64,000 nucleotides of DNA, from the NCBI GenBank assembly GCA_024679065.1, contig JAGIQG010000009.1, positions 90,830,001-90,894,000 on the forward strand, written 5' to 3'. The notes under the pieces were generated by a model, which was not told where the DNA came from, made no database searches, and worked only from the letters and a program-made list of their open reading frames with translations. This document shows, in pieces, positions 5,140 through 47,989 of the stretch; positions within the stretch are counted from its first letter, which is position 1, and each line of letters starts with the position of its first letter. The position numbers and the translations under genes are program-made. Source of the DNA: Sphyrna mokarran (Eukaryota).

Positions 5140-5300
5140 TCTGCGTGGATTTCCTCTGGATGTTCTGGTTTCCTCCCACAAAACATGTTCATTAGGTGAA
5201 TTGACCCAAACACGCACTGAAGTGTGGTGCTTAGGGGCATTTCACAGTAACTTCATTGCAGTGTTAAGGTAAGCCTTACTTGTGACTGATAAATAAACTT
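5140..5300 (+). mobile_element. V-domain SINE fragment, alternative-tail subfamily
   Basis: V-domain CTGCGTGGATTTCCTCTGGATGTTCTGGTTTCCTCCCAC, then a tail GGGGCATTTCACAGTAACTTCATTGCAGTGTTAA..AATAAA shared with 27020-27195 and 44385-44655. Confidence 0.65.
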
Positions 5301-5449
5301 TTAAAAAAAGTAAGGGGGAGGTATGAGAAAGTGAGAGGGAGGAAAGAGGAAGCAAGAATGGAGAATGGGCAAGAGAGTGAGCAGGAGGGAAGAGAGAAAG
5401 GGGGAATAAAAAGGAAGATAGAGTGTGAAGAACAGGTAACAAGGTAGAG

Positions 5450-8225: not shown

Positions 8226-8420
8226 AGTGTTATTCATTCATGGGACATTGGTGTCACTGGCTGCCAGCATTTATTGGCGGGGAGTACCAGGATTTTGACC
8301 CAATGATAATGAAGAAACGGTGATATACTGCCAATTCAGGATGGTTGGAGGGAAACTTGGTGGTGGTTCTCAGGTATCTGCTGCTTTTGTCTTTCTAGAT
8401 GGAAGTAGTCCTGGGTTGAG

Positions 8421-11400
8421 CTCTGGGACAGAATGTTTGGAAGTGCTGGTGGCTGAGTGTGAGTTTTTCAATTTGCTTTTTTTTCTCTTTCTTTTTGAGT
8501 GCTTTTTGCTGCTGTAGTTAGTCTGGGGCTAGCTGGGAAGGAAACCGGGGAGTATAAAAAGAAAGTGGCAGTAGACCGCAGGCAGCATCGGGAATGGGCA
8601 GGGGAGTGAGTAGGGAAGCAGAGTGAGAGATGTAGGGGCTTTGGCTCGCAGGGCCTGGGCTAGAGCAGGCTTAGTCACAGTGTGCTACTGGTTTTTCCAT
8701 TAGAATTCACGCCTCCAAAGGGCTCATGACAATGGCAGGGATTAAGGGAAGACGCCTCACCTGCGTACGGTGTCATATGTGGGAGTTCCTGGAGGCGAGA
8801 CCTCTCCCGAAAGTCCACATATGTGTCAAGTGTTTGGAGCTGCAGTGTCTGAGGGCTCGGGTCAAGCAACTAGAGCGCCAGTTGGAAGATGCATTTTTAG
8901 TCAGAGAGAACGAGGCAATCATGGAAGGGAGGCAGAATAAGGTGGCAGACCCGGAGCCTAAGTGGGGGGGACCTGACCCTTACAGGTGGATTACTGTCAG
9001 GAAGGGGAAAAAGGAGAGGGAAGACAGTCGAAAGACTTCCCCAGTGGCAGCCCCCCAAAATATCGAGGGCGGAGGGGTAAAAAACACAAGGCATGAGGAC
9101 CAGAGTACCTCAAAGGGGAGGAAAGGGGCTAAAAGGTGGGGGGTGGGGGGTGGGAGGGTTAAAGGAATAGATAGGCGCTTCTGTGGTCCAAGGCGGGACT
9201 CCAGGATGGTAGTTTGCCTCCCTGGAGCAGGGGTGCAAGACGTGTCTGACAGGGTAGAGGGCATTTTGAAGGGTGAGGGGCCCAGGCGGATGTGATTATT
9301 CACGTAGGAGAGAAGGATGTAGGAAGGAAGAGCAGGGAGGATATATGAAGGCAGTTCAGGGAGTTGGGGGGTAGGCTGAAGAGCAGGGCCTCGAAGGTGG
9401 CGATCTCAGGTCTGCTTCCAGGCGCGGGTAATAGTGGAGCCAGGAGAAATGAGATCCTACAGCTGAATGTGTGGCTGAAGGGCTGGTGTAGGGCAGAGGG
9501 TTTCATATTTGTGGATAACTGGGAAGTCTTTGTGAAAGAAGGGCACCTGTATAGAAGGGACGGGGAACACTTAAATGGGAAGGGTGTGAATATCTTAGCT
9601 GGGAGGTTAGCTGGAGTGTTTCAGCAGGATTTAAGCTAATATGGAGGGAGGGAGGGGCTGAGACCGATAGCTCAGTAGAGAGCGAGATGGGAGATAGAGT
9701 AAGCTTGGACGAGAAAAGATGCACCGGAGAGAAGGAGGTTCCGAGTGGTCTTGGAGGTCTGGAGTGTGTCTGTTTCAATGCGAGGAGCTTAACGGGAAAA
9801 ACGGATCAACTTAGGGCCTTAATGTTTGGGAGGAACTTGGACGTGGTTGCTGTGACGGAGACATGGTTAAAGGAAGGGGAGCAGTGGCAACTGAACATTC
9901 CTGGGTATAAGTGTGTCAGGCGTGACAGAGGAGGGTCCAGAAGAGGTGGAGGAGTGGTCTTGTTAGTTGAGGAGAGCATCACGGCGGTGCAGAGGGAGGA
10001 CAATACAGAGGAGTTAGGAGTGGAGTCGCTGTGGGTGGAGCTGAGTAATAGAAAGGGGGTGATTACTATGCTAGGGGTTTATTACACGCCATCCAACAGC
10101 CCGCGGGTAGTTGAAGAAGGCATATGTAAAGACATTTTGGATAGGTGCAGAAAGAACAGAGTCGTTATAGTGGGAGATTTTAATCTCCCTAGGGTGGATT
10201 GGAAAGTACCTAGAGCTGGGGCATGGCAGGAATTTGTAAAATGTGTACTGGAAGGATCGTTGGAGCAGTATGTGGCTAGCCCGACTAGAGAAGGGGCTAT
10301 GTTGGATTTAGTTCTGAGTAATGAACCAGGGCAGGTGGTTGATGTTGTAGTAGGGGAACACGTGGCTAACAGTGACCACAATTCTGTCTACTTTAGGATA
10401 CAGATGGAAAAGGATGCTTGTTGCCCTAGGGGCAGGGTGCTGAATTGGGGGAAGGCTAACTACGGTCGGATTATGCAGGAACTTAGGGAAACTGATTGGG
10501 AACGGTTGTTCGAGGGTAAGTCCACGCTAGGCATGTGGGACTCTTTCAAGGGAATACTGAAAATGTTGCACGATAAATATGTGCCGGCCAAGAGGAAAGA
10601 TGGGAAAGATAGGATTAGAGAGCCGTGGATTACTAGGGATATTGAGGACTTGGTTAGAAGAAAAGAGAGATGTATGATAGGTCAAAGCAGCTGGGAACCG
10701 AGACAGCGTTGGAGGAATTTAGAGAGAGTAGGAGGGAGCTCAAACAGCGAGTTAAAGGGCAGAAAGGGGGCATGAAATGATTTTGGCAGATAAGATTAAT
10801 GAAAATCCAAAGGCTTTTTACTCCTATGTTAGGAATAAAAGGGTGGTTAGTGGAAAAATCGGACCTCTTAGGGACGGAGGAGGGGAACTGTGCTCAGAGC
10901 CTGAGGGAATGGCGGGGATACTGAATGAATACTTTGCGTCGGTATTCACGAAGGAGAGGGGCTTGTTGACAGCTCCTGTGTCTGAGGGAGCTGTGGACCA
11001 GTTGAGGGAAATATCCATACCGAGGGAGGAAGTGTTAGAGCTTCTAGGTAGCATTAAAACTCCAGGGCCTGATGGCATTCATCCCAGGCTGCTTAGGGAG
11101 GTGCGAGGTGAAATTGCTGGGCCTCTGACACAACTCTTTGTCTCTTCCTTGGACACAGGTGAGGTCCCAGAGGACTGGAGAATGGCTAATGTTGTACCGT
11201 TGTTTAAAAAGGGTAGTAGGGATAACCCTGGAAATTATAGGCCGGTGAGTTTGACGTCAGTGGTAGGGAAGCAGTTGGAGGGAATTCTTAGAGATAGGAT
11301 GTATAGGCACTTAGAGCGATGAGATCTGATTCGGGATACGCAGCATGAATTTGTTAAGGGGAGGTCGTGCCTTACGAATCTGGTAGAATTTTTTGAGGAG

Positions 11401-13067
11401 GTGACGAAAACGGTCGACGAAGGGCAAGCCGTTGATGTCATCTATATGGATTTTAGTAAGGTGTTTGACAAAGTCCCTCATGGGAGGTTAGTTGAGAAGG
11501 CCAAGACTAATGGTATATAAGGACAGGTAGCTAGATAGATAAGTAACCGGCTTGGTAATAGGAGACAGAGAGTAATAGTGGAAGGGTGTTTTTCTAGCTG
11601 GCGGTCGGTCACTAGTGGTGTGCCGCAAGGCTCGGTACTGGGACCTCTTCTATTTGTAATATATATAAATGACTTGGAAGAGGGAGTAAGTGGGGTGATC
11701 AGCAAGTTTGCAAACGATACAAAGATGGCTGGACTTGTGGATAGTGAGGAGCATTGTCAGGCGATGGAGCAGGACATAGATAGGCTGGTAGCTTGGGCAG
11801 ACAGATGGCAGATGGAATTCAATTCTGATAAATGTGAGGTGTTGCATTTTGGGAGAAAGAATGTAGGGGGTGGGTATATGATAAAGGGAAGACCTATTAA
11901 GAGTATAGAAACGCAGAGGGACCTGGGGGTGCAAGTGAACAAGTCTCTGAAGGTGGCAAAGCAAGTGGAGAAGGTTGTGAAGAAAGCATATAGTATGTTA
12001 GCCTTTATAGGAAGGAGTATAGAGTACAAGAGCTGGCCTTTAATGTTGCAGTTGTATAAAACGCTGGTTAGACCTCATTTGGAATGTTGCGTCCAGTTCT
12101 GGTCGCCTTACTACCGGAAGGACGTGGAGACTCTGGAGAGAGTGCAGAGGAGGTTTACCAGGATTCTGTCTGGTATGGAAGGTCTGAGTTACGAGGAGAG
12201 ATTAGGCAAATTGGGACTGTTTTCCTTAGAAAGATGTAGACTTAGAGAAGATCTGATAGAGGTGTACAAGATTATGAGGGGTATAGATAGAGTAAACAGG
12301 GTTAAGCTTTTTCCTAGGATGGACTCAAATAGCACGAGGGGTCACGGGCTTAGGGTGAGGAGGGTAAGGTATAATTTGGATGCTAGAGGGAGTTTTTTCA
12401 CACAGAGGGTGGTGGGGGTATGGAATGCGCTGCCAAGTAAAGTGGTGGAGGCAGGTACTCTGGAGTTATTTAAGAAATACTTAGATGGGCACATGAACAG
12501 AATGGGAATGGAAGGGTATAGAAAACTGATTTAAACTAGGGATCATGAGCCTTTGGAGTCCCTGGGAAGTGTGTAAATAGATGATATTGATGTATTTGTT
12601 TTTATCCTACAGGTGCTTTGGTCCACCTTGTTGTCTAACGAGGGGCATACACACAAAGGGTCATGAGAGGGCTGCTCTTGGATCTTTTTCGAAAGTATCC
12701 TAGTGCTTCACGTCGTTAGTGTACACTTGACCTGGACCATTTGATGAGCAATACGACAACTCAGTGACTATCGCTGTGCTGTGCAGATACATGGATTTGG
12801 GCCTGCGTCTGTGGGAGTTTGTGCATTCTCCCCGTGCTTGCGTGGGTTTTCTCCGGGAGCTCCGGTTTCCTCCCACATCCCAAAGATGTGCTCTTAGGCT
12901 AATTGGCAAAACAAATTCTCCCTAAATTGTCTCAAATTTTAATTCATAGATCTATAAACATAGATAGCGATCGTGGGTAGAGGTGGGAACACCGGGGTGG
13001 CAGCGCGGGCTCGTTGGGCCGAAGGGCCTGTTTCCCGTGCTGTTTTGTTCTTCGTTCTTTGTTCTTT
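8421..13067 (+). mobile_element. Near full-length CR1 LINE (ORF1 Zn-finger/coiled-coil plus SGNH esterase; ORF2 APE-RT) with SINE-containing 3' UTR
   Basis: ORF1 pieces at 8726-9639 (CxxC..CxxC, leucine heptads, CLPGA, HLNGKG). ORF2 pieces at 9687-12534 (VAVTETW, GDFN, SDH, GVPQGSVLGP, FANDTK) with frameshifts and stops. The tail is (GTTCTTT)n. Candidate TSD TTGAG at 8416-8420 / 13066-13070. It is inserted in an older LINE 3' fragment (8230-8420, 13070-13150). Confidence 0.93.
9687..12534 (+). pseudogene. Disrupted CR1 ORF2 (endonuclease-reverse transcriptase)
   Basis: Three ORF-track segments (9687-10775, 10777-11322, 11578-12534) are separated by a frameshift and in-frame stops. The catalytic FADD motif reads FAND. 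Confidence 0.9.
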
Positions 13068-13916
13068 GAGGAGGTGCTGCCCAAGGAGTCTTGTGAGTTC
13101 CTGCAATGCATCTTGTAAATGGTACACAGGGCTGCTACTGAGTGTGCCATACTGATAGGGTGGTCAGTATTAGTTACTACAATAGTTGTCTATAAAGTGC
13201 CCCTTAACTGGCCTAACATTTTCTATTGATGCAAGACAGTAAGAACTATCCGAATTTCATGATTTCAGTCACATTTTTCGATGGTTCCCAGAGCAGGAAA
13301 ATTGGCCATCGGAAGTTTGCTTTCTCGGACATTTGCCATGCAATCCTTACTTGGGAATTGAACGGAGCGGTGATCTCCCCGGCTCCCTCCCACCTCCCCA
13401 TCCAATGCCCTGGACCTGTATTATTGTTGTCAGTACGATTCCCGTTCTGTCCACACTGTGTCAGGAAATTGCATCCAAAGAATTTAAGCAGAGTCGAGCA
13501 AAGGTTGGAATTAGGTGCGGTGGGGTCGGGGGTGGGAGGGCGGCGGGGTGGGCGGGGGTGGTGACAGTGAAAACGCTTGGAGACGACAATGTTGTATATT
13601 GGGAGGAATTTGCAAGAGCAGAGGGGTGCAGAATGTATGATTTTGAGCAGGAACTTTTGAGTCGAGTGCCGGTTGGAGAGCGGAGCTAACTGTGGGTCTG
13701 TCTGAGTTTCTGGTGACTGGGGCTGCTTTGACTTGCCGGGGATTCCCAGGAAGAGCAAGTGTCTCCCATACACAGCAAAGCTCCATTCGAGCAGAATAGG
13801 TGTGGAAATTCCCCGGTACTCTCCCCGACTGCTGGAGCAGGAAAGAAATGGGCATCAGCACACACAAATTGTTCAATGTGTCTAAGAGGAGTGGAGCGGA
13901 CAATGTAAACACTAGC

Positions 13917-14100
13917 AAAGATGTGCTCTTAGGCTGATTGGCAGAACAAATTCTCCCTAAATTGTCTCAAATTTGGTTTCAATCCATAGATCTATAAACA
14001 TAGACAGGGATTACGGGTAGAAGTGGGAACATTGAGGTGGCGGCACAGGCTTGTTGGGCCAAAGGGCCTGTTTCCCGTGATGTTTTTGTTCTTTGTTCTT
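13917..14100 (+). mobile_element. 3' fragment of the SINE-tailed CR1 family
   Basis: Matches ~12882-13067. Confidence 0.85.
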
Positions 14101-16044
14101 TAACAACTGGAATCATCACACTGCCAACATGTTATCACATACTCTCACACTGTCCTAGCCTACAGTATAGCATTTCCATCTCTGAATCAGGGTGTCAACA
14201 ACGACAACACTTTGGCTGTGACCCTCATTTCTGGAAATGTTTTCAACAAGAACCAGTTCACACACTGTATTTATGCCATTCATTCCCTGATCCACTCTAC
14301 AGTCAGGCTGTGTGCAGTGTAACAGTCTGAGAGTCAGTTCACAGAATCAAACTGTAACCTCACTCCAGACTGTAATTGCACTGCACAGTCTGACCCTGTA
14401 AACTCAATCCCAGACTGTTTTTATATTGCAGTCTGACCTGTGAATTCAGTCCCCTTGCACTCAGTCTGACCTTGTGAACTCTCTGTAGGTTCACTGATGA
14501 CAGTTTGACTTCATGAACACAGTCCCAGCCTGTAATTATATTGCACACAATCTGACCCTTTGAATTCACTAACAGACTGTAGTCACACTGCACACAATCT
14601 GACTCTGTGTGTACTCACTGACTGTAGTTACCCTGCAGATATACTGCACATAGTCTGATCCTGTGAAACGACTCCCAGACTGTAATTACATGTCACAATG
14701 TTTTCCCTGTAAACACATTCCTGGGCTGTTGTTATACTGTCCACAGTTTTACCCAGTGAACTCCCAGACTGTAATTACACTGCCCATAATTTGACTTTGT
14801 GAATGTACTTCCAGACTGTAGTTACATTACATACAGTTTGACCCTGCAAACTTTGGGAATGAGTTCACAGGGCCAGATTTTTTGTGTTTTTACTACAGTC
14901 TGTGAGGTAGTTTGTAGGGTCAAACTGTGTGGTGTAGCAGACTTCTGGGAGTGAGTTCACAGGGTTAATTTCATCAGTGTAACTACAGACTAAGAAGGGA
15001 GAAAAGACTCAAACTGCAATATATTTACATTCTGTGTGAGTTCACAGAGTTAAACTGCATGCAGTGAAACTACAGCCTGGGAGTGAGTTCAGAGTTAGAC
15101 TGTGAAGTATAATTACAGTCTGAAAGTTAGTTCACTGGGTCAGAATATGTGCATTGTTACTACAGCCTAGTGGAGCCTAGGAGTGAGTCTACAGGGTCAG
15201 ATTGTGTGCATTTTAACTATAGTCTGAGAATTTGTTCTCATGACCAGAATACATGCAGTATGAATAAAATTTGGTTGTGAGTTCATATGGTGAGACTGTG
15301 TACAGTGTATCTACAGTCTGAAGTAGTTTGACCTTGCAAACTCACTCATGTACTGTAATGTAACTGCATACAGTCTGACCCTGTCAATTCACACCCAGAC
15401 TGAAAATACATTGCATACACTTTGATCCTGTAACTGTCTCCCAGATTGTAGTTACACTGCACACACTTAGACCCCATGAACTCAGTCCCAGATTGTGGAC
15501 AGTATGACAGTGAATTCAATTGCAGACTGTAATTACATTGCATAAACTCACACTATGAACTCAATCCCTGATTCTAGTTACAAAGCACACATTCTGACTT
15601 TGTAATCCCATTCCCAAACTGTAGTTACAGTACACAGAGATTGCCCTGTAAACTCACTCCCAAACTGTAGTTACACTGCCCACAGTTTGACCCAGTGAGC
15701 ACACTCCCAGATTGTAGTTATACTGTACACAGTCTGACCTTGTAACCATCACTCCCAGACTGTAGTTAAACTATACAGTCTGATCCTGTGAACACACTTC
15801 CAGACTGCAGTTACACCGTCCACAGTTTGACCCAGTGAACATCACTCCCAGACTGTAGTTATAATGTACACAGTCTGACCAAGTGAACATCACTCCCACT
15901 CTGTAGTTAAACTGTACACAGTCTGACCCTGTAAATTCACTCCAAGACTGTAGTTACACTGCACACAGTCTGACCCTGTGATCTCTCTCTAGGAGTGAGT
16001 TCACAGGATCAGCTTTTTTGCTGTGTAATTACAGTCTTGAGAAT

Positions 16045-16339
16045 AAAGAACAAAACAGCATGGGAAACAGGCCCTTTGGCCCAATGAGCCTGCGCCGCCA
16101 CCCTGATGTTCCCACCTCTACCCATGATCCCTGTCCATGTTTATAGATCTATGGATTAAAAACCAAATTTGAGACAATTTAGGGAGAATTTGTTTTGCCA
16201 ATTAGCCTAAGAGCACATTTTTGGGATGTGGGAGGAAACCGGAGCACCCGGAGAAAACCCACGCAAGCACGAGGAGAATGCGCAAACTCCCACAGACACA
16301 GGCCCAAATCCATGTATCTGCACAGCACAGCGATAGTCA
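16045..16339 (-). mobile_element. 3' fragment of the SINE-tailed CR1 family
   Basis: Reverse complement of ~12765-13060; inserted in the 47-bp satellite. Confidence 0.85.
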
Positions 16340-16439
16340 TATAAACCACCCCAAACCCCCTAATTAGCTTCCAATCCATAACTCACTCCCGAATATCTAT
16401 TATTCTATATATAAACCCCACTGAAACGCTTTGATTAGG

Positions 16440-17242
16440 TTTCAGTCTGTAACAAGTTGCGTGGAGGACACAGAAAATCTGCAGAGAGATCTGGATAGGC
16501 TGAGTGAGTAGGCAAGGACCTAGTAGATGGAGTATAATGTTAGCAAATATGAGGTTATCCACTTTGGTAGAAATAATAGTAGGAGGGATTATTATTTAAA
16601 GGGTGAAAAGCTGCAGCATGCTACAGTGCAAGAGACCTGGGGGTTCCTGTGCACGAATCGCAAAAACCCAGTCTGCAGGTGTAGCAGGTGATCAAGAAGG
16701 TGAATGGAATGTTGGCCTTTATAGCGAGGGGGATAGAATATAAAAGCAGGGAGGTTTTGCTGCAACTTTACAGAGTACTGGTGAGGCTGCAACTGGAGTG
16801 CTGTGTGCAGTTTTGGTAGCCTTATTTGCGAAAGGATATATTGGCCTTGGAGGGAGTACAGAGAAGTTCACCAAGTTGATAATAGAGATGAGGAGATTAG
16901 CTTATGAACAGAGATTGAATAGACTGGATCTGTACTCATTAGAGCTTAGGAGGCTGAGGGAGGATCTTATAGAGACTTACAAGATAATGAAGGGGCTAAA
17001 CAGGGTAGAGGTAGAGAGATACTTCCCACTTAAAACAATAGCAGAACTACAAGCACAGCCTCAAAATAAGGGGAGGACAGTTTAGAGCGGAGTTGAGAGG
17101 AACTTCTTCACTCAAAGGGTGATGAGTCTCTGGAATTCTCTGCCCATTGAAGTGATGGAGGCTACTTCGTTGAATATATTTAAGTAACAGATAAATACGT
17201 TTCTTATAGACACGGGAATTCAGGGTTATGGGAAGAAAGGGT
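16440..17242 (+). mobile_element. CR1 ORF2 3' fragment inside the satellite
   Basis: LYSLELRRLREDLIETYKIMKG motif and FFTQRV. Confidence 0.85.
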
Positions 17243-19674
17243 TAAAGTGTTCACAGGGTCAAACTGTGCAATGTTACTGACTCTAGGAGTGAGTTCTTGG
17301 GATTGAACTCTCAGTGTAACAGGAAGAAATAAAACAGTCAAACTGCAATATATTTCATGAGTGAGTTCATAGAGTCAGACTGTGTGCGGTATAAGTACAG
17401 TCTGAAAATTGGTTCACAAGGTCAGATTGTGTGCAGTGAAATTATAATCTGAGAATTTATTCACATGATTAGACTACATGTAGCATGTCTAAAATTTAGT
17501 TGTAAGTTCACAAGGTCAAACCATGTGCAATGTACCTATAGTCTGAAGCAGTTTGACCCTGCAAACTCACGTCCAGACTGAACTCATACTACACACAGCC
17601 TGAACCTGCAAACTCACTCATGGACTATTGTATAAGTGTGCACAGTCTGACCCTATGATTGCACTCCCAGACTTCAGTTACAATGCACACAGTCTGACCA
17701 AGTGAACTCATAGGGTCAGGCTGTGTGGAGTGTAATTACAGTCTGGGAGTGAGTTCACAAGTTCAGATTGTGCACTACAACTATAGTCTGGGACTGAATT
17801 CATTGGTCAAACTGTTTATAGTATAAATACAGTCTAGGACTGAGATCATAGGGTCACAGGGTGACAGCAATCTGAGATGAGTTCACAGGGTCAGACTATG
17901 TGCAGTCTAATCTACACATCTCAGGACACTAAGGGCAATTTTTTAGCATGGCCAATCAACCTAACCCACACATCTTTGGACTTCACAGTGAGTGAAGTTC
18001 AAGAGTCAGTTTATGTGCCGTGTAACTACAGTCTGGGAAAGGGTCAAACTGTCATCAGTGAACTACATCTGGGAGTGAATTCATAGGGTCATATTGAGTG
18101 CAGGATATCTACAGTCTGTGACTGAATTCACAAGTCAGACTGTTTACAGTATAACAACAGTCTGGGATTGAGATCACAATGTCATAGAGTAACTGCTGCC
18201 TGTGAGTGACTTCAGTCTGGGATTGAGTTCACAGGATTAGACTGTGCACTGTAACTGCAGTCTGAAAGTGAGTATACAAGATGAGACTGTGCAGTATAAC
18301 TACAGTCTGGCAGTGACTTTACAGGATGAGATGGTACAGTCTAACTACAGTCCAGGGGAAAGCTCACAAGGTCAGACTCATCAATGTGACTGCAGTCTTG
18401 GATTCAGATCAAAGCATCAAACTGCAGCACATTGATAGTCTGAGAGTGAATTCACATGGTCAGATAGTGCATTGCAACTGCAGTCTGGGAGTGAGTACAC
18501 AAGATGAGACTGTGTGCAGTATAACTACAATCTAAGATGAGTTTGCAGGGTCAGATTGTGTGCAGTGTATCTACAGTTTGGGAGTCAATTTGCAGGGTCA
18601 GACTGTATGCAGTGTAAGTACAGTTTAGGGAAGAGTTCACAGGATTTTCATACAATCAGACTCATCAGTGTGACTGCAGTCTTGGAGCGAAATCAAACTG
18701 CAGCGTATCTATAATCTGGGGGTGAAATTACAGGGTCAGACTGTGTACAGTGTAACTACAGTCTGAGTGTATTCTGTTAATGTGATGACAGGGTCAGACT
18801 GTGCACAGTGCAATTACAATTACTAGAGTCTAGGAGACAATTCACAGGGTCACACTTTGTGTTATTATCCACAGTCAGAAAGTGGGTTTATGGGGTCAGA
18901 CTGTGTGCCGTTTAACTAAAGCCTGGAAGTCAGTTCACAGGATCAGATTGTACAGTGTAATTCAATCTGTGAGTGTGCTCTGTTAATGTGATGACAGGGT
19001 CAGACTGTATGTAATAGTAATGAGATAATAGGATCAGACTCTTACAGTATAACTACAGCCTGGTAATGAGTTAACAGGGTCAGATTGTGTACAGTTTTAC
19101 TACAATCCAGAGTGAGTTCACAGGTTCAGACTCTATGCAGTGTATCTAGTCTTGGAGTGAGTTCACAGAGTCCGACTGTGTGCAGTGTAACTACAGTCTG
19201 GGGGAGTATTCACAAGGTCAGACTGTCATCAGTGCAACTATAGTTTGGGAGTGAGTTCAAAGTGTCAAACTGCAGTGTATCTACAGTCTGAGAGTGAATT
19301 CAGAGCATCAGACTGTGTTGTTTCTAAAGCCTAGGAGACAATTCACAGAGTCAGACTTTGTGCTATAATCTACAGTCAGCAAATCAATTAACGGGGTCAG
19401 ATTGTGCAATGCAACTGCAATCTGAGAGTGAGTTCACAGGACAGACTGTGCACGGTATAACTACAGTTTAGGAGACAGTTCATAGGGTCAGACTGTGTGC
19501 AGTATAACTACAGACTGGTTATAGGTTCACAGAGTCAACTACAGTCTGGAAGCAATATTGAAAAGTCACAGTGTAGCACATCCTGGATGTGAATTCACAG
19601 AGACAGACTGTGTGCAGTATAACCACTGTTTTGGCCACAGTTTTGCAGAGTCAGACATTGTTCAGTGTAACTAT

Positions 19675-19983
19675 ATCGCTTCTCGGCCTTTTGGCTAAGA
19701 TTAAGTGTAGTATCAATATGCTACGCAAGGTTGAAGTCATTAGGTTACATTTCAGCTTCATTGGAAGCAATTTTTCAAAATGGCGTCATGGCCTTTTGGC
19801 TAAGATGCAAATGAGATCAAGCTTTGGAGAAGGAGCTATGCTTATTCCAATCAGCTTGGATCATGTAGCTCAAGCCCAAGACAGGTGAGAGCCCTGTCTT
19901 GTCAGCTTGGATTGGGAATGTCTCAACTTGTTGAGACTCTGAATTGGACTTGATTTGATTGAATTGGAATAAGAATAAAAAAA
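19675..19983 (+). mobile_element. U2 snRNA-headed SINE-like retroposon (SINEU-like), copy 2
   Basis: 19675-19714 matches U2 snRNA nt 1-40 (39/40 vs recalled vertebrate U2). A second U2 fragment GGCCTTTTGGCTAAGAT lies at 19790-19806. The body is shared with 5990-6305. It has an A-rich tail and TSD AACTAT (19669-19674 / 19984-19989) interrupting a satellite unit. Confidence 0.88.
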
Positions 19984-20224
19984 AACTATAGTCTGTGTGT
20001 GAGATCACAGGGTCAAACTATGGGCACTAAAACTACAGGCTGGGAGTTCACAGGCTCGTACTATATAGTTTAGCTGCAGTTAGCGGCTGAATTCACACAT
20101 CTGGCTTTATATAGTATAACTATAGTCCTGGAGTGAGTTCACTGTGTGCAGTATGACTACAGTCTGGGAGCAAGTTCACTGGGCCAGAGTGTGTGCTCTA
20201 TAAACAACAGTGTTGGAGTGAGTT

Positions 20225-20570
20225 AGGGTAGTTCAGTGCTACAGTGATTAGCACTATTGCCTCACAGCTCCAGGGATCCAGGTTCAATTGGACGACTGTT
20301 TGTGTTGAGTTTGCAAGTTTTCCCTGTGTCTCCGTTGGTTTCCTATGGGTGCTTTGGTTTTCTGCCACAGTCCAAAGATGTGCAGGTTAGGTATATTGGC
20401 CATGCTAAATTGCCCCTTAATGTCCAAAGATGAGATTAGCGGGTAAATGTGTGGTGTTGCGGGGTTAGGATTGGGAATGATCATGGGTATGATGCCCTGT
20501 CAGAAAATCAATGCAGAAACAATGAGCCAAATGGCCCTCTTCTATACCATAGAAATTCTATGGGGAATCT
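20225..20570 (+). mobile_element. HE1-like tRNA/V-domain SINE
   Basis: tRNA head (CAGTGATTAGCAC..GGTTCAA), V-domain and CR1-type tail. Confidence 0.75.
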
Positions 20571-21014
20571 GTTTTCAGTGTAGCTATGCTTTGGGACTGA
20601 CTTCACAGGATCATAGAGTAACTACAGACTGGAGTGAGTTCACAGGGTCAGACTGTGTGCAGTATAATTACAGTCTGCGAGAGAGTTCACTGGGTCAAAG
20701 AACCTGCAGTCCGCGAGTGAGTTAACAGGGCCGGAATGTTTATATGTTAGTATACCTACAGTCAGGAACTGAGTTCACAAGGTCACAGAGAAACTAATTC
20801 TGGATGAGAGTTCGCAGGTTAAGACTATGTGCAGTGTAACTACAGTCTGGGGGTGAGTTCACAGCATCAACTTGTGTGCAATATAATCACAATCTTGGTG
20901 TGATTCACAAGGTCAGACTATGTACTGTAACTACAGAGTGGAGCAGGTGAGTGAAATCTTCCCTCTTTTCCTCTGAAATACTACTGTCTAAAAAGGCCTA
21001 GCATGTAACTTAGT

Positions 21015-21876: not shown

Positions 21877-22207
21877 GGTGGCATAGTTACACAGTGATTA
21901 GCACTGGTACCTCACATCTTAGGGACCTGGGTTCAATTCCAGCTTTGAGTGACTGTCTGTATGGAGTTTACACAATCTTCTTGTGTCCGTGTGGGTTTCC
22001 TCCAGGAACTTCAGTTTCCTCTCAGTTTAAAGATGTGCAGGATATGGTGATTGCTCCTTAGTCTTCACTGTAAACATATGGGATTATTGGGGGGGGGGGG
22101 GGAATAATTGGGTTGGGGAAGAGGATCCAGGTGAAGTGCTCTGTCAGAGAGTCGGTGCAGACAATGGGCCAAATGTTGACTTCAGCACTGTAGGGATTCT
22201 ATGATGA
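21877..22207 (+). mobile_element. HE1-like tRNA/V-domain SINE
   Basis: GGTGGCATAGTTACACAGTGATTAGCAC..GGGTTCAATTCC head, V-domain and tail. Confidence 0.78.
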
Positions 22208-25448: not shown

Positions 25449-25880
25449 TGTTGTCTAACGAGGGGCATACACGCAATGGGTCATGAGGGGACTGCTCTTG
25501 GATCTTGAGAGTATCCTAGTGCTTCACGTCGTTAGTCCAGGTCAAGTGTACACTATCTGATGGGCAACACTGCAGCTCAGTGACTATCGCTGTGCTGTGC
25601 AGATACATGGATTTGGGCCTGTGTCTGTGGGAGTTTGCGCATTCTCCCCATGCTTGCGTGGGTTTTCTCCAGGCACTCCGGTTTCCTCCCACATCCCAAA
25701 GATGGGCTCTTAGGCTAATTGGCAAAAGAAATTCTCCCTAAATTGTCTCAAATTTGGTTTTTAATCCATAGATCTATAAACATGGACAGGGATCGCAGGT
25801 AGAGGTGGGAACATCGGGGTGGCGGCGCGGGCTCGTTGGGCCAAAGGGCCTGTTTGCCATGCTGTTTTGTTCTTTGTTCT
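25449..25880 (+). mobile_element. 3' fragment of the SINE-tailed CR1 family (B2M intron 1)
   Basis: Matches ~12629-13060. Confidence 0.88.
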
Positions 25881-28209: not shown

Positions 28210-29025
28210 AAGATGCTCAGGTTAGTTGGATTGCCCACACTAATTTGCTCCTTAGTGTCCCAAGATGTGTAGATTGGGGGAATTAGCAGGGTAGGTATGT
28301 GGGGTTATGGGGTTAGGGCTTGGGTGAAATGCCCTGTGGTAGAGTTGGTGTAGAAATGATAAGCTGTATGGCGTCCTTTTACTCTGTAGGGATCCTTTGA
28401 TTTTCTAAATAGAACAGCCCCAACGTCGCTGATCTATCCTAAATGGAGTTTTTCATTCCCTGAACTTTAATTTCCTTCTTTATGTACTCTATTTATAAAG
28501 CTCAAGATCCGGTAGCTTGTTTCTCAACCTATCCTGCCACCTTTAATGATTTGCACGCATATGTGTCCATGTTTCTCTCCATATTTCTGTCCATTTCCCC
28601 CAACTGTTTACATTCTCGTCTATCACTACTGTCTTCGTATGTCACAATACTTACAATTTTGTGTCTTCTGCAATTTTTGAAGCTAGGCCTTTGAACATAA
28701 ATAAAGGAACCAAAGAATCCCTATACTGCAAAAGGAGGCCATTTGACGCACTGAGCGAGAAATAACAAAAATTTCACCCAGACCTTATCCCTGTGACCCT
28801 ATGTATTTACCCTACTAATCCCCATAATATTGAAGAGCAATTTATCATAGCCATTCAACTTAATCCTCACATCTTTGAACTGTGGCAGAAAAGCTGGAGC
28901 ACCTGAAGAATGCCTACACAGACACAGGGACTATGTGCAAACTCCATAGATAGTCACCTGAAGCCAGATTTGAACCTGGGTCCCTGGCACTGTGAGGCAG
29001 CAATGCTAATCACTGTGCTGCCTCA
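28210..29025. mobile_element. Two HE1-like SINEs (28210-28400 plus; 28710-29025 minus) within a CR1 remnant
   Basis: V-domain and tail matches; a reversed tRNA head at 28965-29025. Confidence 0.6.
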
Positions 29026-34759: not shown

Positions 34760-37700
34760 CAAACACATTGCCATGGATTTGCTGTTACATGAATGCAAAA
34801 GTGAGTAAGGACAGATTTTCTTCTCTAAATTCGAGAGGTTGAGGAGGATATAGGCAGGAGTAACAAAGAGATTGTAACTCCTAAAAGTGATAATTGGGTA
34901 ACTATTAGGAAGAGGGGTAAGAAGCAATCGGGGAGACAATCCCCTGGGGCTGTTCCCCTCCAAAATAAATTTTCTGTCTTGGAGGCTACAGTTGAGGAAG
35001 AATCAACTGGAGCTGACCAAAGGGAGCAGGTCTCTGGGGGTGAGCCTGCTGAGAATGCTCAGGTGGGTGGGGGGAATAAGAGATTAGGCCTAGTTATAGG
35101 AGACTCCATAGTTAGAGGGACAGATAGGAGGGTAAATAGTAATAAACGGGACTCAGGGCTGGTGTGTTGCCTCCCAGGGGCTGGGGTCCAGGATGTCGCA
35201 GATCGGGTTTTTAAGATTCTTAAGGGTGAGGGGAGTCAGCCCCAAGTCATAGTTCATGTGGGGACACATGATGTAGGTAGGACAAGGGAAGGGGATATTA
35301 AACAGAAATTTATGGAGTTAGGGTGGAAGCTTAGGTCCATAACAGGCAGAGTGGTTATCTCTGGACTCTTGCCTGTGCCAAGGGATAGTTTAGAGAAGAA
35401 CAGAGAAAGGGAAAGTTTGAACTCATGGCTGCGTGGATGGTGCAGGAGGGAGGGGTTCAGGTTCCTTAACAATTGGGACTCATTCTGGGATAGGTGGGAC
35501 CTCTTCAAGAGAGATGGTCTACACCTGAACCAGAGGGGGACTAATATCTTGGGGGGAAAATTTGCTAAGGCTATGATGGGAGCTTTAAACTGATTCGGGG
35601 GGGGTGGTGGGATCCTAAGTAGTTGGGGTGCTGAGAGGGATGAGAGTAAGGGGGTTATAGAAGAGAGTTGTAAAACACAGCGGCATACGGGTGGGGTGGG
35701 GCATGGTTTGAAATGCGTATACTTTAATGCAAGGAGTATTCGCAATAAGGGGGAGGAACTTGCAGCTTGGACCAGTACCTGGAACTTCGATGTTGTGGCC
35801 ATTTCAGAGACTTGGGTAGAGCAGGGACAGGAATGGATGTTGCAGGTTCCGGGGTACAAATGCTTTAGTCGGAGTAGAGAAGGAGGTAGAAGGGGGGGAG
35901 GAGTGGCATTATTGGTCAAAGACTGTATCACGGTGATAGAAAAGAAGTTTGATGAGGACTTGTCTGTTGAGGTAGTATGGGCTGAGATTAGAAACAGGAG
36001 AGGAGAGGTCACCCTGTTGGGAGTCTTTTACAGACCTCCTAATAGTTCTAGAGAGGTTGAGGAAAGGATTGCAAAGTCAATTCTGATTAGGAGTGAAAGT
36101 AGTAGGGTAATTGTGATGGGGGACTTTAACTTTGCTAATATTGATTGGAATAGCTATAGCTCTAGCTCGTTAGAGGGGTCAGTTTTCGTACAGAGTGTGC
36201 AGGAAGGTTTTTTGACTCAGTATGTAGATAGGCCAACTAGAGGTGAGGCTACATTGGATTTGGTGCTGGGCAATGAGCCAGACCAGGTGTTAGGCTTGGA
36301 AGTTGGTGAACATTTTGGTGATAGTGACCACAATTCGGTTACGTTCACCTTAGTGATGGATAGGGATAGGCATGAAGCTGGGGGCAGTAGTTATAGCTGG
36401 GGGAAGGGTAATTATGAGGCCATCAGGAGAGAATTAGGGTGCATAGATTGGACTAGGAAACTACAGGGACTGGGAACATCTGGAATGTGGTGCTTATTCA
36501 AGGAGCAGCTGCTGCGAGTCCTTGATAAGTATGTCCCTGTCAGGCAGGGAGGAAATGGTCGAGTAAGAGAGCCTTGGTGTACGAAAAAAGTTGATTTGCT
36601 GGTTAAGAAGAAAAAGGAGGCTTATGTCAGGATGAGGCTTGAAGGCTCAGTTAGTGCAATGGATAGCTATAGATTAGCCAGGAAGGAGCTAAAAAGTGAA
36701 TTGAGGAGAGCTAAGAGGGGACACGAGAAGATGTTGGCTGATAGGATTAAGGAGAATCCTAAAGCTTTCTTTCGATATGTTAAGAATAGAACATTGGTTA
36801 GGGCAAGATTAGGGCCACTCAGACAGCAGTGGGAAGTTGTGCGTGGAGCCTGAAGAGATTGGTGAGGCACTGAATAAATATTTCTCTTCGGTATTCACGC
36901 AGAGTGCTGGAAATGTAGCTATGGAGAACACTGAGGTACAGGGTTGCAAATTGGGAAGTATTGTAGTAGATAGGGAGGATGTGTTAGAAATTCTCGAGGG
37001 TTTGAAGTTGGATAAGTCCCCTGGGCCGGACGGGATTTACCTAGGATTCTCTGGGAGGCAAGAGAGGAGATTGCAGAGCCTCTGGCTCTGATCTTCAGGT
37101 CCTCGTTGGTTACGGGTGTGGTTCCGGAGGACTGGAGGATAGCGAATGTGGTCCCATTGTTTAAGAAGGGGAAGAGAGACCTTCCAGGGAATTATAGGCC
37201 AGTGAGTCTTACTTCTGTTGTGGGCAAGGTATTGGAGAGAATTATTAGGGATAGGATTTATAGTTATTTAGAGAGAAATGAATTGATTGGGGATAGTCAG
37301 CATGGTTTCGTGAAGGGTAGGTCATGCCTTACTAACCTCATTGAGTTTTTTGAGAAAGTGACCAAAGAGGTGGATGGGGGTAAGGCGGTTGATGTAGTAT
37401 ATATGGACTTTAGTAAGGCGTTTGATAAGGTGGCCCATGGAAGACTTCTACAGAAAATGCAGATGTGTGGAATAGAGGGTGATTTAGCTAATTGGATTAG
37501 GAATTGGCTGGCAGATAGAAGACAGAGGGTGGTGGTTGATGGGAGATATTCATCGTGGAGTTCGGTGACAAGTGGTGTGCCTCAGGGGTCTGTTTTGGGG
37601 CCCCTGCTGTTTGTAATTTTTATAAATGATCTGGATGAGGGTATTGAGGGATGGATCAGTAAATTTGCAGATGATACTAAAGTTGGTGGTGTGGTAGATA

Positions 37701-38558
37701 GTGAAGAGGGGTGTTTTAGTTTACAGAGTGACTTGGACAAGTTGCAGAGCTGGGCCGAGAGGTGGCAAATGGAGTTTAATGTGGAAAAGTGTGAGGTAAT
37801 GCACTTTGGCAGGAACAATAAATGTGTAGAGTATAGGGCTAATGGTAGGGCTCTTAATAGTGTTGAGGAACAGAAGGATCTTGGTGTATGTGTCAATAGA
37901 TCCCTGAAAGTAGGCAGTCAAGTGGATAAAGTTGTTAAGAAGGCATATGGAGTCTTAGCTTTTATTGGTAGGGGGATTGAATTAGGAGCCGCAGCATCAT
38001 GTTGCAACTGTACAAAACTCTAGTGCGGCCGCACTTGGAGTATTGTGTGCAGTTCTGGTCCCCACATTATAAGAAAGATGTGGAGGCATTGGAGAGGGTA
38101 CAGAGGAGGTTTACCAGGATGTTGCCTGGTATGGAGGGCAGGTCCTATGAAGAGAGGTTGAAGGATTTGAGGTTGTTTTCGTTAGAAAGGAGGCGGCTAA
38201 GAGGGGATCTTATTGAAGCATATAAGATGATTAGAGGTTTAGATAGGGTGGACAGTGATAGCCTTTTTCCTAGGATGGAGAAAGCTAGCACGAGGGGACA
38301 CAGCTTTAAATTAAGGGGTATGAGTTATAGGACGGATATCAGAGGTAGGTTCTTTACTCAAAGAGTGATTAGGGAGTGGAATGCCCTGCCTGCAGCTGTT
38401 GTAGATGCGCCAAGTTTGGTGGCGTTTAAGAGGTTAATTGATAAGTATATGGAAGAGAAGGGAATGGTTTAGTTTGGAGGGGCATTGCTTTTTATTTTGG
38501 TCGGCACAACATCGAAGGCCGAAGGGCCTGTTCTGTGCTGTATTGTTCTATGTTCTAT
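34760..38558 (+). mobile_element. CR1 LINE, 5'-truncated within ORF1 (esterase) with nearly intact ORF2
   Basis: 34979-35593 encodes an SGNH esterase (GDSIVRG, HVGTHD, DGLHLN). 35696-38472 encodes APE-RT with FADDTK and about 3 frameshifts. The short 3' UTR ends (TTCTATG)n. Confidence 0.93.
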
Positions 38559-42349: not shown

Positions 42350-42730
42350 CCGGAAGCTTGCATTTTCAATATTGCAGAAAGCACTCCCTCCGACCCCCGG
42401 GGGCGCTGCAGACGAAGGTGCACGTTTACGAGTGCGCACCTTTAAATCCAGCGCCCCCTGACGACTACTCCAGCTCGCGCGAGCTCTCAAGAGTCGAACT
42501 ACCAGACATTGAGCGCCAACCGCCCCTACGCGCGCCCGAGAAGCGGGTCAACGCGTCAGGACTACAATTCCCATCAGGCATCGCGGTCCACGTATCTCGA
42601 TTCCACGCTGACAGTCCTACTGTCAGGCAGGCGTGGGGCGCCATGAAGCATGGATAATGTAGTTCCGACCGGCTGAACATCTGGCTCCACAGAGCCTGCG
42701 CAGGATCACGCGACGCAACTGTTGGAATCA
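42350..42730. promoter_or_regulatory. CpG island / orphan housekeeping-type promoter
   Basis: Sharp CpG enrichment in an otherwise CpG-depleted window. ACTACAATTCCCATCAGGCA (42561-42580) and an opposite-strand ACTACATTATCCATGC (42648-42663) match the ZNF143/THAP11 SBS motif. CTCF-like GGGGGCGCTG occurs on both strands. Confidence 0.7.
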
Positions 42731-44384
42731 GTACAGCTGGGTATCCACATCTAGAAGACCAGTAATCACCTCAAAAACATCAGCAAGGTGGATATCCACA
42801 TCAAGAAAATCGGTAATCACCTCAAAAACATTAGCAAGGTGAATAGCCACACCAAGAAGATCAATAATCACCTCAAAAACGCCAGCAGTGTGGGAATTCA
42901 CCATGAAGATCGCTAACCATGTCAAAAACACCAGCAAAGTGGGCATTAACATGAAAATTGTTTTTTCATGTCTCAAAAACATGAACAAGGTGGGGGTGGG
43001 GGGATGATTCATACAGAAAACAGTCATCACTTCAAACAATACCTGCAAGCTGGGATTCACACTTTGAAGATTGATGACCATCTCAAAAACACAAAAAGCA
43101 TGGAGATTCACACCAAGAAGAACAGTAACCACCCCAAAAACACCAGCAGTGTGTGGATTCACATCATGGTGACCAGTAACCATCTCAAAAACACCAGCAA
43201 GGTGGATATTCACACCATGAAGATCAGTAAACAGCTCAGAAACACAGCAATGTTGGGATTCACATCATGGTGACCAATAATCATCTCAATAACACCAACA
43301 AGTTTGGCATTCATACCATGAAGTGCAGTAATTACCTCATAATCCAACTCAGCAATTACTACTCACCAGTCAACTCTTAGTTTGGGCAAAGTAGATATTA
43401 ATATCATGAAGATTGATAACCATCTCAAAAATACCAGCAAGTTGGATATTCACATTGTGAAGACTCAGACCACCTCAAAATACTAACATGCTGAGGACTC
43501 ATAAATGAAGACCAGTAATCACCTCAAAAACACCAGTAGCATGGAGATTCACACCATGAAGACCAGTGACCACCCCAAAAATATCAGCAAGGTAGTTCAC
43601 ACCATGAAGATCAATTATGTCAAACAACAGCAAGTCTTATTTCATGAAGACTACTAACCACTTCAAAAAAAAGGTAGCTATTCACACCATGAAGATTGTT
43701 ATCAATCTCAAAAACACCATCAAGGCAATGATTTATATCATGAACAAAGAACAACAAAAATTACAGTACAGGAACAGGTCCTTTGGCTCTCCAAGCCCGC
43801 ATCGATCATGCTGCCCATGTGATCTAAAACCCCCTAAAACTCCTTCTGGGGACCATATCCCTCTATTCCCATTCTATTCATGTATTTGTCCAGACACCCC
43901 TTTTGAAAGTCACTATCATATCTGCTTCCACTTCCTCTCCGGCAGTGATTTCCAGGCACCCACCACCGTACAGCTCCTTTAAATCTTGCCCTTCGCACCT
44001 TAAACCTATACCCCCAGTAATTCACTCTTCCATCCTGGGAAAAAGCTTTGACTATCCGCTTTGACCATGCCCTTCATAATCCTGTAGACTTCTATCAGGT
44101 CTCCTCTCAACCTCCATTGCTCCAGTGAGAACAAACCAAGTTTCTCTAACCTCTCCTCGTAGCTAATGTGCACCATACCAGGCAACATCCTAGGAAATCA
44201 TTTCTGTATCCTCTTCAAAGCCTCCACATCCTTCTGGTAGTATGGCAACCAGAATTGAACACTACATTCCAGAACAGCCTAACTAAAGTTCTCTAAAGCT
44301 GCAATATAACTTGCCAATTTTTAAACTCAATGCCTTGGCTGATGAAGGCAGCCATGCCATATGCCTTCTTGACTACCTTCTGTG

Positions 44385-44655
44385 AGTGACATGGTGGCAC
44401 AGTGGTTAGCATTGCTGCCTCATTGTGCCAGGGACCCAGGTTTGATTCAGGGCTTGGGTCACTGTCTGTGTGGAGTTTGTGTGTTTTTCCGGTGTCTGCG
44501 TGGGTTTCTTCCAGCTTTCTCCCACAGTCTGAAAGACATGCTGGTTAGGTGCATTGACCCGAACAGGTGCCAGAGGGTGGCGACTAGGGGAATTTTATAG
44601 TAGCTTCATAGCGGTGTTAATGTAAGCCTTACTTGTGACTAATAAATAAACTTTA
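44385..44655 (+). mobile_element. tRNA/V-domain SINE, alternative tail
   Basis: GGTGGCACAGTGGTTAGCATTGCTGCCTCA..GGTTTGATTC head, V-domain and a tail ending AATAAATAAAC. Confidence 0.8.
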
Positions 44656-44970
44656 CTTCCGGCTGTGTTACCATTTTCAGTGACCAGTGTACCTGTACAC
44701 CCAGATTTTCTGCTTATCAATACTGTTGAGGGTTCTGCCATTTACCATGTGTTTCCCATTTAAATTAGACCTTCTAAAATGCACTACCTCACATTTGACT
44801 GGATTAAACTCCATCTCCCATCTCTCTCCCAAGTCTCCAAACAATCTATATTGTGCTGTATCCTCTGATGGTCCTCATCATAAGCCACAATTCCACCAAC
44901 CTTTGTGTTGTCCTAACTTAGGAAACAAACCAGTTGCATTTTCCTCCAAATTATTTATATATATTTTAAC

Positions 44971-45470
44971 AAAGAACAAAACAGCACGGGAAACAGGCCC
45001 TTCGGCCCAACAAGTCCACGCTGCCACCTCGATGTTCCCACTTCTACCCATGATCCCTGTCTATGTTTATAGATCTATGGATTAAAAACCAAATTTGAGA
45101 CAATTTAGGGAGAATTTGTTTTGCCAGTTAGCCTAAGAGCACATCTTTGGGATGTGGGAGGAAACCAGAGCACTCAGAAAACCCACACAAGCACAGGGAG
45201 AATGCGCAAACTCCCACAGAAACAGGCCCAAATCCATAGTGACTGAGCTGTCATGTTGCCCATCAAATGGTCCAGGTCAAGCATATACTAACGACGTGAA
45301 GCACTAGAATACTCTCGAAAAAAATCCAAGAGCAGCCCTCTCATGACCCATCGCATGTATGCCCCTCGTTAGACAACAAGGTGGACCAAAGCACCTGTAG
45401 GATAAAAACAAGTACATCAATATCATCATCTAGTTACACACTTCCCAGGGTCTCCCAAGGCTCATGACCC
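44971..45470 (-). mobile_element. 3' UTR copy of the SINE-tailed CR1 family, nested in an older CR1
   Basis: Reverse complement of ~12537-13060. Confidence 0.88.
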
Positions 45471-46499
45471 CTATTTTAAATCCTCTAAATAATTTAAATA
45501 TTTGGAACAGCAAAAAACCCAACACCGATCCCTGAGGAACACCAGTAGTCCCAGCCCTCCATTCAGAAATGCATCCTTCTCTGCTACCCTCTGCCTTCTA
45601 TGACTGAGCCAGTTCTGTATCCATCTTGCCAGCTCACCTCTGAACCCATGTGACCACCTTCTGTGCCAGTCTGCCATTAGGGACCTTGTCAAAGGTTTTA
45701 CTGAAGTCCATGTAGACAATATCCACTAGCCTCAATCATCTTCATCATTTCCTTGAAAAACCCCTATCATATTAGTGAGACATGACCTCCCCTTTCCAAA
45801 CCATGTTTCCTCTTGCTAATACATCCACTTTTTTCCAAGTAGGAGTAAATACTGTCTCAAAGAATCCTCTCCAATAATTCCCGACATAAGGCTCACTGGC
45901 CTGCAATTATCAGATTAACCTTGCTACCCTTCTTAAACAGAAGAACAACATTGGCTGTTTCCCAGTCTTCCGGAATCTCCCCTGTAGTCAGTGAGGATAT
46001 GAAAATTTCTCTCAAGGCACAGCAATTTCCTACCCTGCTTCTCTCAGGATGTATCCCATCAGGCCCTGAGGATTTGTCTACCTTAATGTTTTTCCAAGAT
46101 TCCCAATACCTCCTTTATAATCTTAACATGATCCAAACTATCCACATTCTCTTCCCCAGACTCATCAACCACCAAGTCCTTCTCTTTGGTGAATACTGAC
46201 ACAAAGTACTCATTTAATAGCTTACCCATTTTCTCTGGCTCCATGAAGTGATTCCCTTCCCTGTTCTTGAGTAGGCCAACCCTCTCCCTGGTTTTTCTCT
46301 TGCTCTTTATATAAAAGTCATGAGATTTTCTTTAATCTTGCTGGGCAATTACTTTTCGTGACCTGTTTTTGCCTGCCCGCTCCTTTTAAGTTCCTTTCTA
46401 CTTTCAAGATCAATGATCATCTCAAAAGTACTAGCAAGGGGAGTATTAATATTATGAAGACTGTGAACACCTGAAAAGTATTAACAACGTTGGATTCAA

Positions 46500-47336
46500 C
46501 AACAACACAGCACAGGAAACAGGTTCTTCGGCCCTATAAGCCCACACCGCCCATTTTAACATTCAATGAGTATCTCATTCCAATCTTTCTTCTACCTTTG
46601 ACTTTTGTCTACATCTAGTGGACTCACAATAAAGGGATGCAAATTTAGGGAATTATATGTGTGCCAGATTAAGGGAGATCCAATTTAGGGACAATTAATT
46701 AACACCAATCAGCCTAAAAGCATGTTTTTGGAGTGTGGGAGGAAACCAGAGCACCTGGAGAAAACCCATGCAAGCATGGGGAGAATGTGCAAACTCTCAC
46801 AGACACTGACCCAAGCCGGAAATTCGACTCAGGTCCCAGTAACTACAGCAAACAGTGATAGTCACTGAGCTGTCATGTTGCCCATCAATTGGTCCAGTTT
46901 AAGCATACTCTAATGATGTGAAGCACTAGGCAACTCTCGAAACAACATCCAAGAGCAGCCCCTGCACGACGCACCGCATGTATGCCCCTTGTTGGCCAAC
47001 AAGACAGACTGAATCGCCTGAGGATGTGAAAAAGAGACATCAATAAACATACAACAGCCTACGCAAACATTAATGGAAAATCCCCAATAGCTCCAATGCA
47101 AAGAGACAGGTGAGCCATAAAATTTGTTGGACGGCCGATAGGAATCTATTAATTCCCAGTAACGTCCTGAGGCTCTTGATCCTCAACTAGAACATTCTTT
47201 TGTATCCCTCCATCTCTAGTCTGCTCATGTGCCTATCTAGGTAAGTCTTAAACAACCCTAGCATGTCTGCCTCCACCACCCTACTTGGCAGTGCATTCCA
47301 GGTCCCCCCAACCCTCTGTGTGAAAAACATCCCTCT
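46500..47336 (-). mobile_element. Diverged subfamily of the SINE-tailed CR1 (ORF2 ends MEGYKRMF*)
   Basis: CR1 ORF2 C-terminus at 47187-47336, then a homologous UTR domain, a better-preserved tRNA-like head, the V-domain and a CR1-type tail. Confidence 0.8.
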
Positions 47337-47989
47337 AACATCTGAATTCATAACATAAAGACCAATAACCACCTTTGAAAATTCCAGCAAAGCTGTCTTC
47401 ACACTCAAGAAGATTGGCAACTATGTCAAAAACACCAGCAATGTGAGAATTAATACCATGAAGACCAGTAATCACCTCAAAAACATCAACAATATAGGAA
47501 TTCACACTATGGAAACTAGTAACCATCTCAACCACTTCATCAAGATAGAACTCATAGCAGGAACATCAGTGACCATCTCAAAAACACAAACTGAGGATTC
47601 ACACTATGGAAACCAATGACGACCTCAAAAATACCAGCAAAGCAATGACTTACACATCATGAAGCTCAGTGACCATCTAAAACATGACAGCAAAATGAGT
47701 GTTCACAACATGAAGTCTGGTAACCATCTCAAAAACATCTGCACAAATTGTGTCTTTGCAGCATGGAGACTAATAATTACCTCAAAAACATCCACATGGG
47801 TTATTCATAGTATGAAGCCCAGAAATCACCTCAAAAACACTTCGAAGATCTATAATCATTTATCATGGAGACAAATAATACTTGAAAAACACCTGCACAG
47901 GTATGTATTCACACTGAAAACCAAAAAGCATCTAAGAAACACCAACACAAGTGGATATTTACACCATTAAGAATAATAACACTTTGAAA

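Follow-up and report, generated by a model that had tools for sequence, protein, structure and literature searches.

A CR1-type LINE clade of Sphyrna mokarran with a hairpin, a tRNA-derived SINE head and a V domain within its 3' UTR

We have found a clade of CR1-type LINEs, made up of at least four families (A to D) and not of one, whose 3' UTR contains a hairpin domain, a tRNA-derived SINE head and the V highly conserved domain (V). The composite is transposed as a single unit, has an insert-free sister family, ends in a LINE-derived tail, bears a decayed SINE promoter, and carries a V that has changed slowly. Sequence comparison leads us to favor the reading that these parts sit as an insert in a 3' UTR native to the LINE, likely gained once, and that they have probably been kept by selection as RNA elements that aid copying. 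V is conserved in SINEs from cnidarians to vertebrates. As a tentative extension that may well be wrong, V could be a portable cis-acting RNA enhancer of retrotransposition, domesticated by the LINE from its own parasite with the parasite's promoter off, V and the new hairpin being kept through a radiation of ~90,000 copies.

Anatomy and copies of the composite LINE

The window is the whole 64,000-nt stretch of DNA that was analyzed (contig JAGIQG010000009.1). It holds a full-length family-A element with the following parts:

8421-13067, + strand: family-A CR1-type LINE, full-length, ~4.65 kb, with the 5' end of full-length copies elsewhere
8732-9639, + strand: ORF1, disrupted in this copy, end approximate
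9735-12534, + strand: ORF2 (APE endonuclease and reverse transcriptase), from Pfam matches and ORF pieces, start approximate
12535-12612, + strand: spacer 1, what remains of the ancestral UTR start joined to family-variable sequence, with a polypyrimidine tract and CAG (splice-acceptor-like) at its 3' end
12620-12739, + strand: hairpin domain, ~120 nt, with a closing stem, a short hairpin and a long interrupted stem
12745-12804, + strand: degenerate tRNA-derived SINE head with a mutated A box and an 18-nt B-box segment deleted, from comparison with family B and the free SINE head
12805-12924, + strand: V highly conserved domain, ending at the published V_HCD end
12925-12999, + strand: spacer 2, family-variable, intermediate lineages linking its B and A forms
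13000-13067, + strand: the LINE's own CR1 tail, a stem-loop and GTTCTTT repeats, 85% identical over 68 nt to insert-free family S

We take the element to be a CR1 from its architecture, as known for the group; our trees contained only families of the same genome. It has traits of the CR1 group, namely a 3' stem-loop with a short tandem repeat, variable 5' truncation, and little or no target duplication. ORF2 gave Pfam matches to Exo_endo_phos (E=1e-12) and RVT_1 (E=3e-10) and is broken by stops and frameshifts before its stop codon at 12532-12534. The ORF1 piece of the window copy had no Pfam match, and a less broken ORF1 copy matched the esterase-like OSK weakly, below the curated cutoff (E=4e-4, one copy). 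A pyrimidine tract and a TATA-like box occur in the 5' UTRs of the clade (window 8421-8731; locus L319:940-1330, +; 5' end of L327, -). The element resembles canonical chordate CR1 LINEs (bioRxiv 10.64898/2026.01.13.699120) in its ORF1, APE-RT ORF2 and microsatellite tail, and differs in a 3' UTR of 460-690 nt, compared with ~60-100 nt in the relatives examined here. A term search of that preprint found no mention of V-SINE or tRNA.

The chimera of a LINE and a tRNA/V-SINE described in the initial annotation is real, with V at 12805-12924 and the degenerate head at 12745-12804. The ~210 nt taken there for unique UTR are a variable spacer, which differs widely in length among families, and a conserved 120-nt hairpin domain. 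The family consensus of V matches the free V-SINE of the same genome at 103/119 positions, and a hand count against the published V_HCD core gave about 74/86 aligned bases (PMC6887750 supplement). The head is more eroded in family A (34/59 matches between the window copy and the free SINE head, z=3.6) than in family B, where it is full-length (53/78, z=14). ARAGORN found no tRNA anywhere in the 64-kb window.

The LINE interrupts an older repeat, the two halves of which are continuous with each other (8280-8417 corresponds to 1665-1815, and 13070-13145 to 1817-1893); the LINE and the SINE part therefore arrived together. The window holds six more copies:

54689-56096, - strand: family A, 5'-truncated, running from ORF2 to tail, V interrupted by a later ~60-nt insertion
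44968-45482, - strand: family A, 5'-truncated
25449-25880, + strand: family A, 5'-truncated
16040-16339, - strand: family A, 5'-truncated
13916-14101, + strand: family A, 5'-truncated
46498-47348, - strand: older family B, ORF2 end to tail, B-box region retained

The family-A copies at 54689, 44968, 25449, 16040 and 13916 had all been named before. The earlier count of six copies in 64 kb missed the family-B copy, which is 92% identical to its family consensus over 854 nt. The insertion in V of the 54689-56096 copy (54890-54946) is an antisense CR1-tail fragment with a short duplication, and the 25449 copy has a ~20-nt inversion in its hairpin domain, at about 25545-25570. Long degenerate tandem arrays lie on both strands at 14300-21000, 42730-43730 and 47340-47960.

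The genome was searched with a query of the ORF2 end and UTR that stopped before V (3379 candidates, 40 scored). All 29 non-self loci fetched in this way continued into V and the tail; 28 were contiguous, one was split by an insertion, and one pair had common flanks. The 29 non-self loci retrieved with V alone likewise all had the same tail, and their 5' ends were staggered. The fixed junction, the different flanks and the rejoining of the host repeat across the element uphold the earlier proposal that the chimera itself is the transposing unit. Independent SINE insertions and segmental duplication are both ruled out by the fixed junction and the different flanks, the latter seen among the window copies as well.

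Copy number was estimated from seven large contigs, sampled at even spacing in 60 stretches of 10 kb (600 kb; genome 2.77 Gb). This sample contained 13 family-A tails and 19 of the whole clade, giving estimates of ~60,000 (32,000-103,000) and ~88,000 (53,000-137,000) genomic copies, respectively. With six family-A copies in 64 kb, the window is about 4x as dense as the sample. In sequencing-run data, 20 of 24 rows contained part of a family-C stretch, 4 of them at least half of its words, across three organisms; these matches were given no weight as evidence. Four internally deleted family-A copies (L367, L380, L384 and L385) have their 5' region joined to the 3' region at varied points.

Sister families and the source of insert and tail

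Clustering was done after self loci and duplicates had been taken out. Hairpin, head and V are common to B, C and D, as in A, and both spacers differ; single copies of further lineages bridge the families. A sister CR1 family, S, combines a related ORF2 end with the same tail and has only ~60 nt after the stop (25/25 loci listed), and an outgroup, O1, likewise has a short UTR with the same tail (12/20 loci listed). In family B, the bases just after the stop and those just before the tail both align to the S UTR. The comparison with short-UTR CR1s called for earlier places S as sister to (B,(A,(C,D))) over 710 ORF2 columns (SH-aLRT 98.5), and two alternative topologies were rejected (AU p=0.016 and 0.005). 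Standard bootstrap for the insert clade was only 60, and shorter ORF2 alignments were less decisive (AU p=0.058; B grouped with S at 57). From a tree of ORF2 ends, 165/402 were left out as too short, and the insertion labels on three of its distant tips, which came from neighboring insertions, were disregarded. The long short-UTR CR1 at 34760-38558 belongs to another abundant family, with 65% amino acid identity at the ORF2 end, and is an outgroup.

Judged from these UTRs, a short UTR with the LINE-type tail is ancestral whichever root is right, because O1 has both; the SINE part therefore lies as an insert within the 3' UTR of the LINE itself. Since the insert-free S and O1 are also abundant, the insert is dispensable for mobility.

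The initial annotation had proposed a reversed flow, in which an autonomous LINE adopted a whole SINE, together with its compatible tail, as its 3' end. SINE sequence did enter an autonomous LINE, but the tail is S-like and no SINE body is detectable, so that the adoption of a whole SINE is disfavored. Identity of the tail to S, compared with the CR1-tailed free SINE, is 49/58 vs 42/57 in A, 52/58 vs 41/57 in B, 41/58 vs 37/58 in C and 47/58 vs 41/55 in D. At 16 diagnostic sites, S states outnumber SINE states by 10:4 in A, 12:2 in B, 9:5 in C and 10:4 in D, the closest fit being in basal B. Spacer 2 has no significant match to either free SINE body (z -1.2 to 0.7). Among the 114 V matches of the 600-kb sample, 15 (~13%) are chimeric LINE ends, 11 of them with the LINE-type GTTCTTTG tail, which occurs on none of the 99 non-chimeric matches. 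The free SINE tail is itself better matched to another CR1 lineage (score 64 vs 37). A whole V-SINE could nonetheless have replaced the LINE 3' end if a now-extinct SINE had earlier borrowed its tail from the same LINE lineage, or if the tail was later converted back. CR1 and SINE tails are homologous in any case (41-42/57), A, C and D show four or five SINE-like states among the diagnostic sites, and old SINE families can escape a 600-kb sample; set against the tail sites, the 0/99 count and the lack of a SINE-body trace, we regard this history as very unlikely.

We thus favor an insert that left the LINE's tail in place. An ancestral master LINE would have gained a SINE-containing fragment, likely once, either because the fragment was retroposed into it or because the reverse transcriptase switched templates. 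In family B, similar stretches of six or seven bases flank the insert; they could be a target duplication or microhomology and do not decide between these routes. The LINE would have kept its own tail for recognition by the reverse transcriptase, a role known from LINE biology (PMC5786205). The suggestion of recent success fits families C and D, but the capture itself predates all four families. Mean ORF2 divergence from consensus among top-scoring copies is 3.3% in A, 8.0% in B, 1.5% in C and 2.0% in D, and was 5.0% for family A in the even 600-kb sample. The 3' ends of the young family C carry oligo-A in 7/10 copies listed and other short repeats in three, instead of GTTCTTTG (L201-L211). 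Poly-A tails are described in a preprint as unique to Zenon among CR1-group elements.

Promoter decay, V conservation and the hairpin

In the free V-SINEs of this genome the A and B boxes are both intact, and the tails are of two other kinds, CR1-type and L2-type. Intact boxes were not found in the chimeric head. Both are changed in basal family B, where the B box is degenerate but kept, and the bridging lineages, like A, C and D, have lost the 18-nt segment holding the B box. No free unit begins at the head, 5' ends being staggered and the upstream sequence being LINE UTR and ORF2. The re-amplification of a SINE from truncated copies was considered and set aside, with no clear 5'-end peak at the head among 29 loci. 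Pol III initiation in SINE heads depends on the internal promoter. The promoter would have been lost stepwise, through point changes and then the 18-nt deletion, and Pol III presumably no longer starts at the chimeric head, which would not fire as a SINE.

Divergence was calculated between consensus sequences of top-scoring copies, with 60-78 fourfold-degenerate ORF2 sites per pair. Between A, B and C/D, fourfold sites differ by 31-38%, V by 8-11% (three to four times less), the head by 7-18% and the hairpin by 10-26%. For V against fourfold sites, Fisher p values in the three pairs tested were 8e-5 (A-B), 1.6e-6 (B-D) and 1.3e-4 (A-C). Conservation goes no further than the motif closing the published V_HCD (PMC6887750), and both spacers drift by indels. 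This slow change makes it likely that V is functional in the LINE RNA. V and the hairpin would then be retained as RNA elements of the transcript that help the LINE to be copied, and V may act in cis, independently of Pol III, in stability, localization or RNP assembly.

It is unlikely, in our estimation, that the insert is a neutral passenger whose low V divergence came from recombination or conversion among chimeric families, or from differences in mutation rate. Both flanking spacers are family-specific, so any swap must have covered the core alone; C and D are closest to each other in both ORF2 and V; and the conserved block ends at a V boundary known from other animals. Chimeric V domains also share changes absent from free SINEs, which argues against repeated conversion from the latter. 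Consistent with a passenger are the success of the insert-free relatives and the non-significant covariation of the hairpin.

Evidence on the hairpin is mixed. Against shuffled sequences, copies of B, C and D gave folding z scores of -3.8 to -4.5 and the window copy a weak -1.5; 92.8% of cells were paired in the hairpin model. Covariation was not significant (4/45 pairs; 56/500 shuffles as high), RNAalifold gave a partly different fold, and Rfam returned sub-threshold matches only, with no family at the gathering score. The hairpin changed more slowly than fourfold sites for B-D (p=2e-5), and was no better conserved than these for A-C (p=0.50) or C-D (0.17 vs 0.14). Pairing between the insert's 5' end and the LINE tail gave its best 24-nt window at the same site in four families, but not beyond shuffles (4-10 of 40), with an ensemble probability of 0-0.09.

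Just before the hairpin, 9/9 lineages carry a 12-base tract with 9-11 pyrimidines and then YAG, despite turnover of the spacer. Families C and D have an intron-like stretch in the 5' UTR, running from GTGAGT/GTAAGT to AAAG just before ORF1, which is weaker in A. If the polypyrimidine-CAG were a real acceptor, joining a 5' UTR donor such as these or a host exon to hairpin, V and tail, the product would be a short subgenomic or regulatory RNA and the insert would persist for its part in RNA processing. Spliced retrocopies were found neither among 30 loci read from 41 pattern matches nor among 29 loci chosen by 5' UTR, and the 100 listed from 163 matches include none that ends in a predicted donor. 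None of the deletion joins of L367, L380, L384 and L385 lies at the acceptor-like site. The CAG-G and the bases that follow resemble an antisense CR1 tail (22/30 loci), which could explain the origin of the motif, and splicing is on balance quite unlikely. The hairpin start (12610-12635) resembles the antisense tail of another CR1 family in 22/30 pattern loci (L390-L418), loci that were selected by the pattern itself; such a tail is a possible origin of the insert's 5' end.

Relation to known elements

SINEs normally borrow LINE tails (PMC5786205, PMC5499810), as in the HE1 V-SINE and HER1 CR1-type LINE pair of sharks and rays (PMC3747384). The chimera has a tRNA head, V and a CR1-type tail in the same order as that pair, and free SINEs of HE1 design are abundant here (about 50/114 V matches in the 600-kb sample). 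Compared by design, the chimera differs in that its head and V are embedded in an autonomous LINE, its promoter boxes have been damaged or lost by deletion, its tail belongs to the LINE, and its head comes after a hairpin domain.

V is on record as captured once by a DNA MITE, the Tc1/Mariner MER6/MER6A with a headless Ac1-like V-SINE (PMC6887750). There too a V-SINE piece was captured and spread by another mobile element; MER6, however, is a non-autonomous DNA element that has no RNA intermediate and carries the SINE body and tail, whereas the host here is an autonomous retroelement in which V constraint can be measured across several active families. SINE-like or tRNA-like pieces have been described in two LINE families, and LINE-SINE recombination has been suggested for Ingi-3_AC (PMC5786205). 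These elements too are LINEs that carry a SINE-like or tRNA-like stretch in a UTR, but as described they are single families, with the 5' UTR involved in Ingi-3_AC, no V domain, and no analysis of sister lineages or constraint. According to PMC5804259, LINE sequences had, as of 2016, yielded no highly conserved domain. Our full-text literature search, with Repbase, Dfam and the original HE1 papers outside it, found no description of a V domain in a LINE UTR, and term look-ups in PMC5753468, PMC8620236 and PMC13295347 found no precedent.

With V in an autonomous LINE and presumably uncoupled from Pol III, its function can be tested in cis by an ordinary retrotransposition assay. The ORF2 fourfold sites provide a built-in neutral yardstick for V, and the insert-free sister family provides a natural control. 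For annotation, about 13% of V matches (15/114 in the sample) are LINE ends and not SINEs. At locus L271, a free V-SINE with an L2-type tail is interrupted by a full-length chimeric LINE, a 4-nt duplication accompanying the insertion. Two free V-SINE families in the window that have head and V in common and differ in their tails, CR1-type and L2-type (20241-20421, 21890-22130 and 28829-29016; 44397-44600 and 5142-5330), provide an example of tail exchange.
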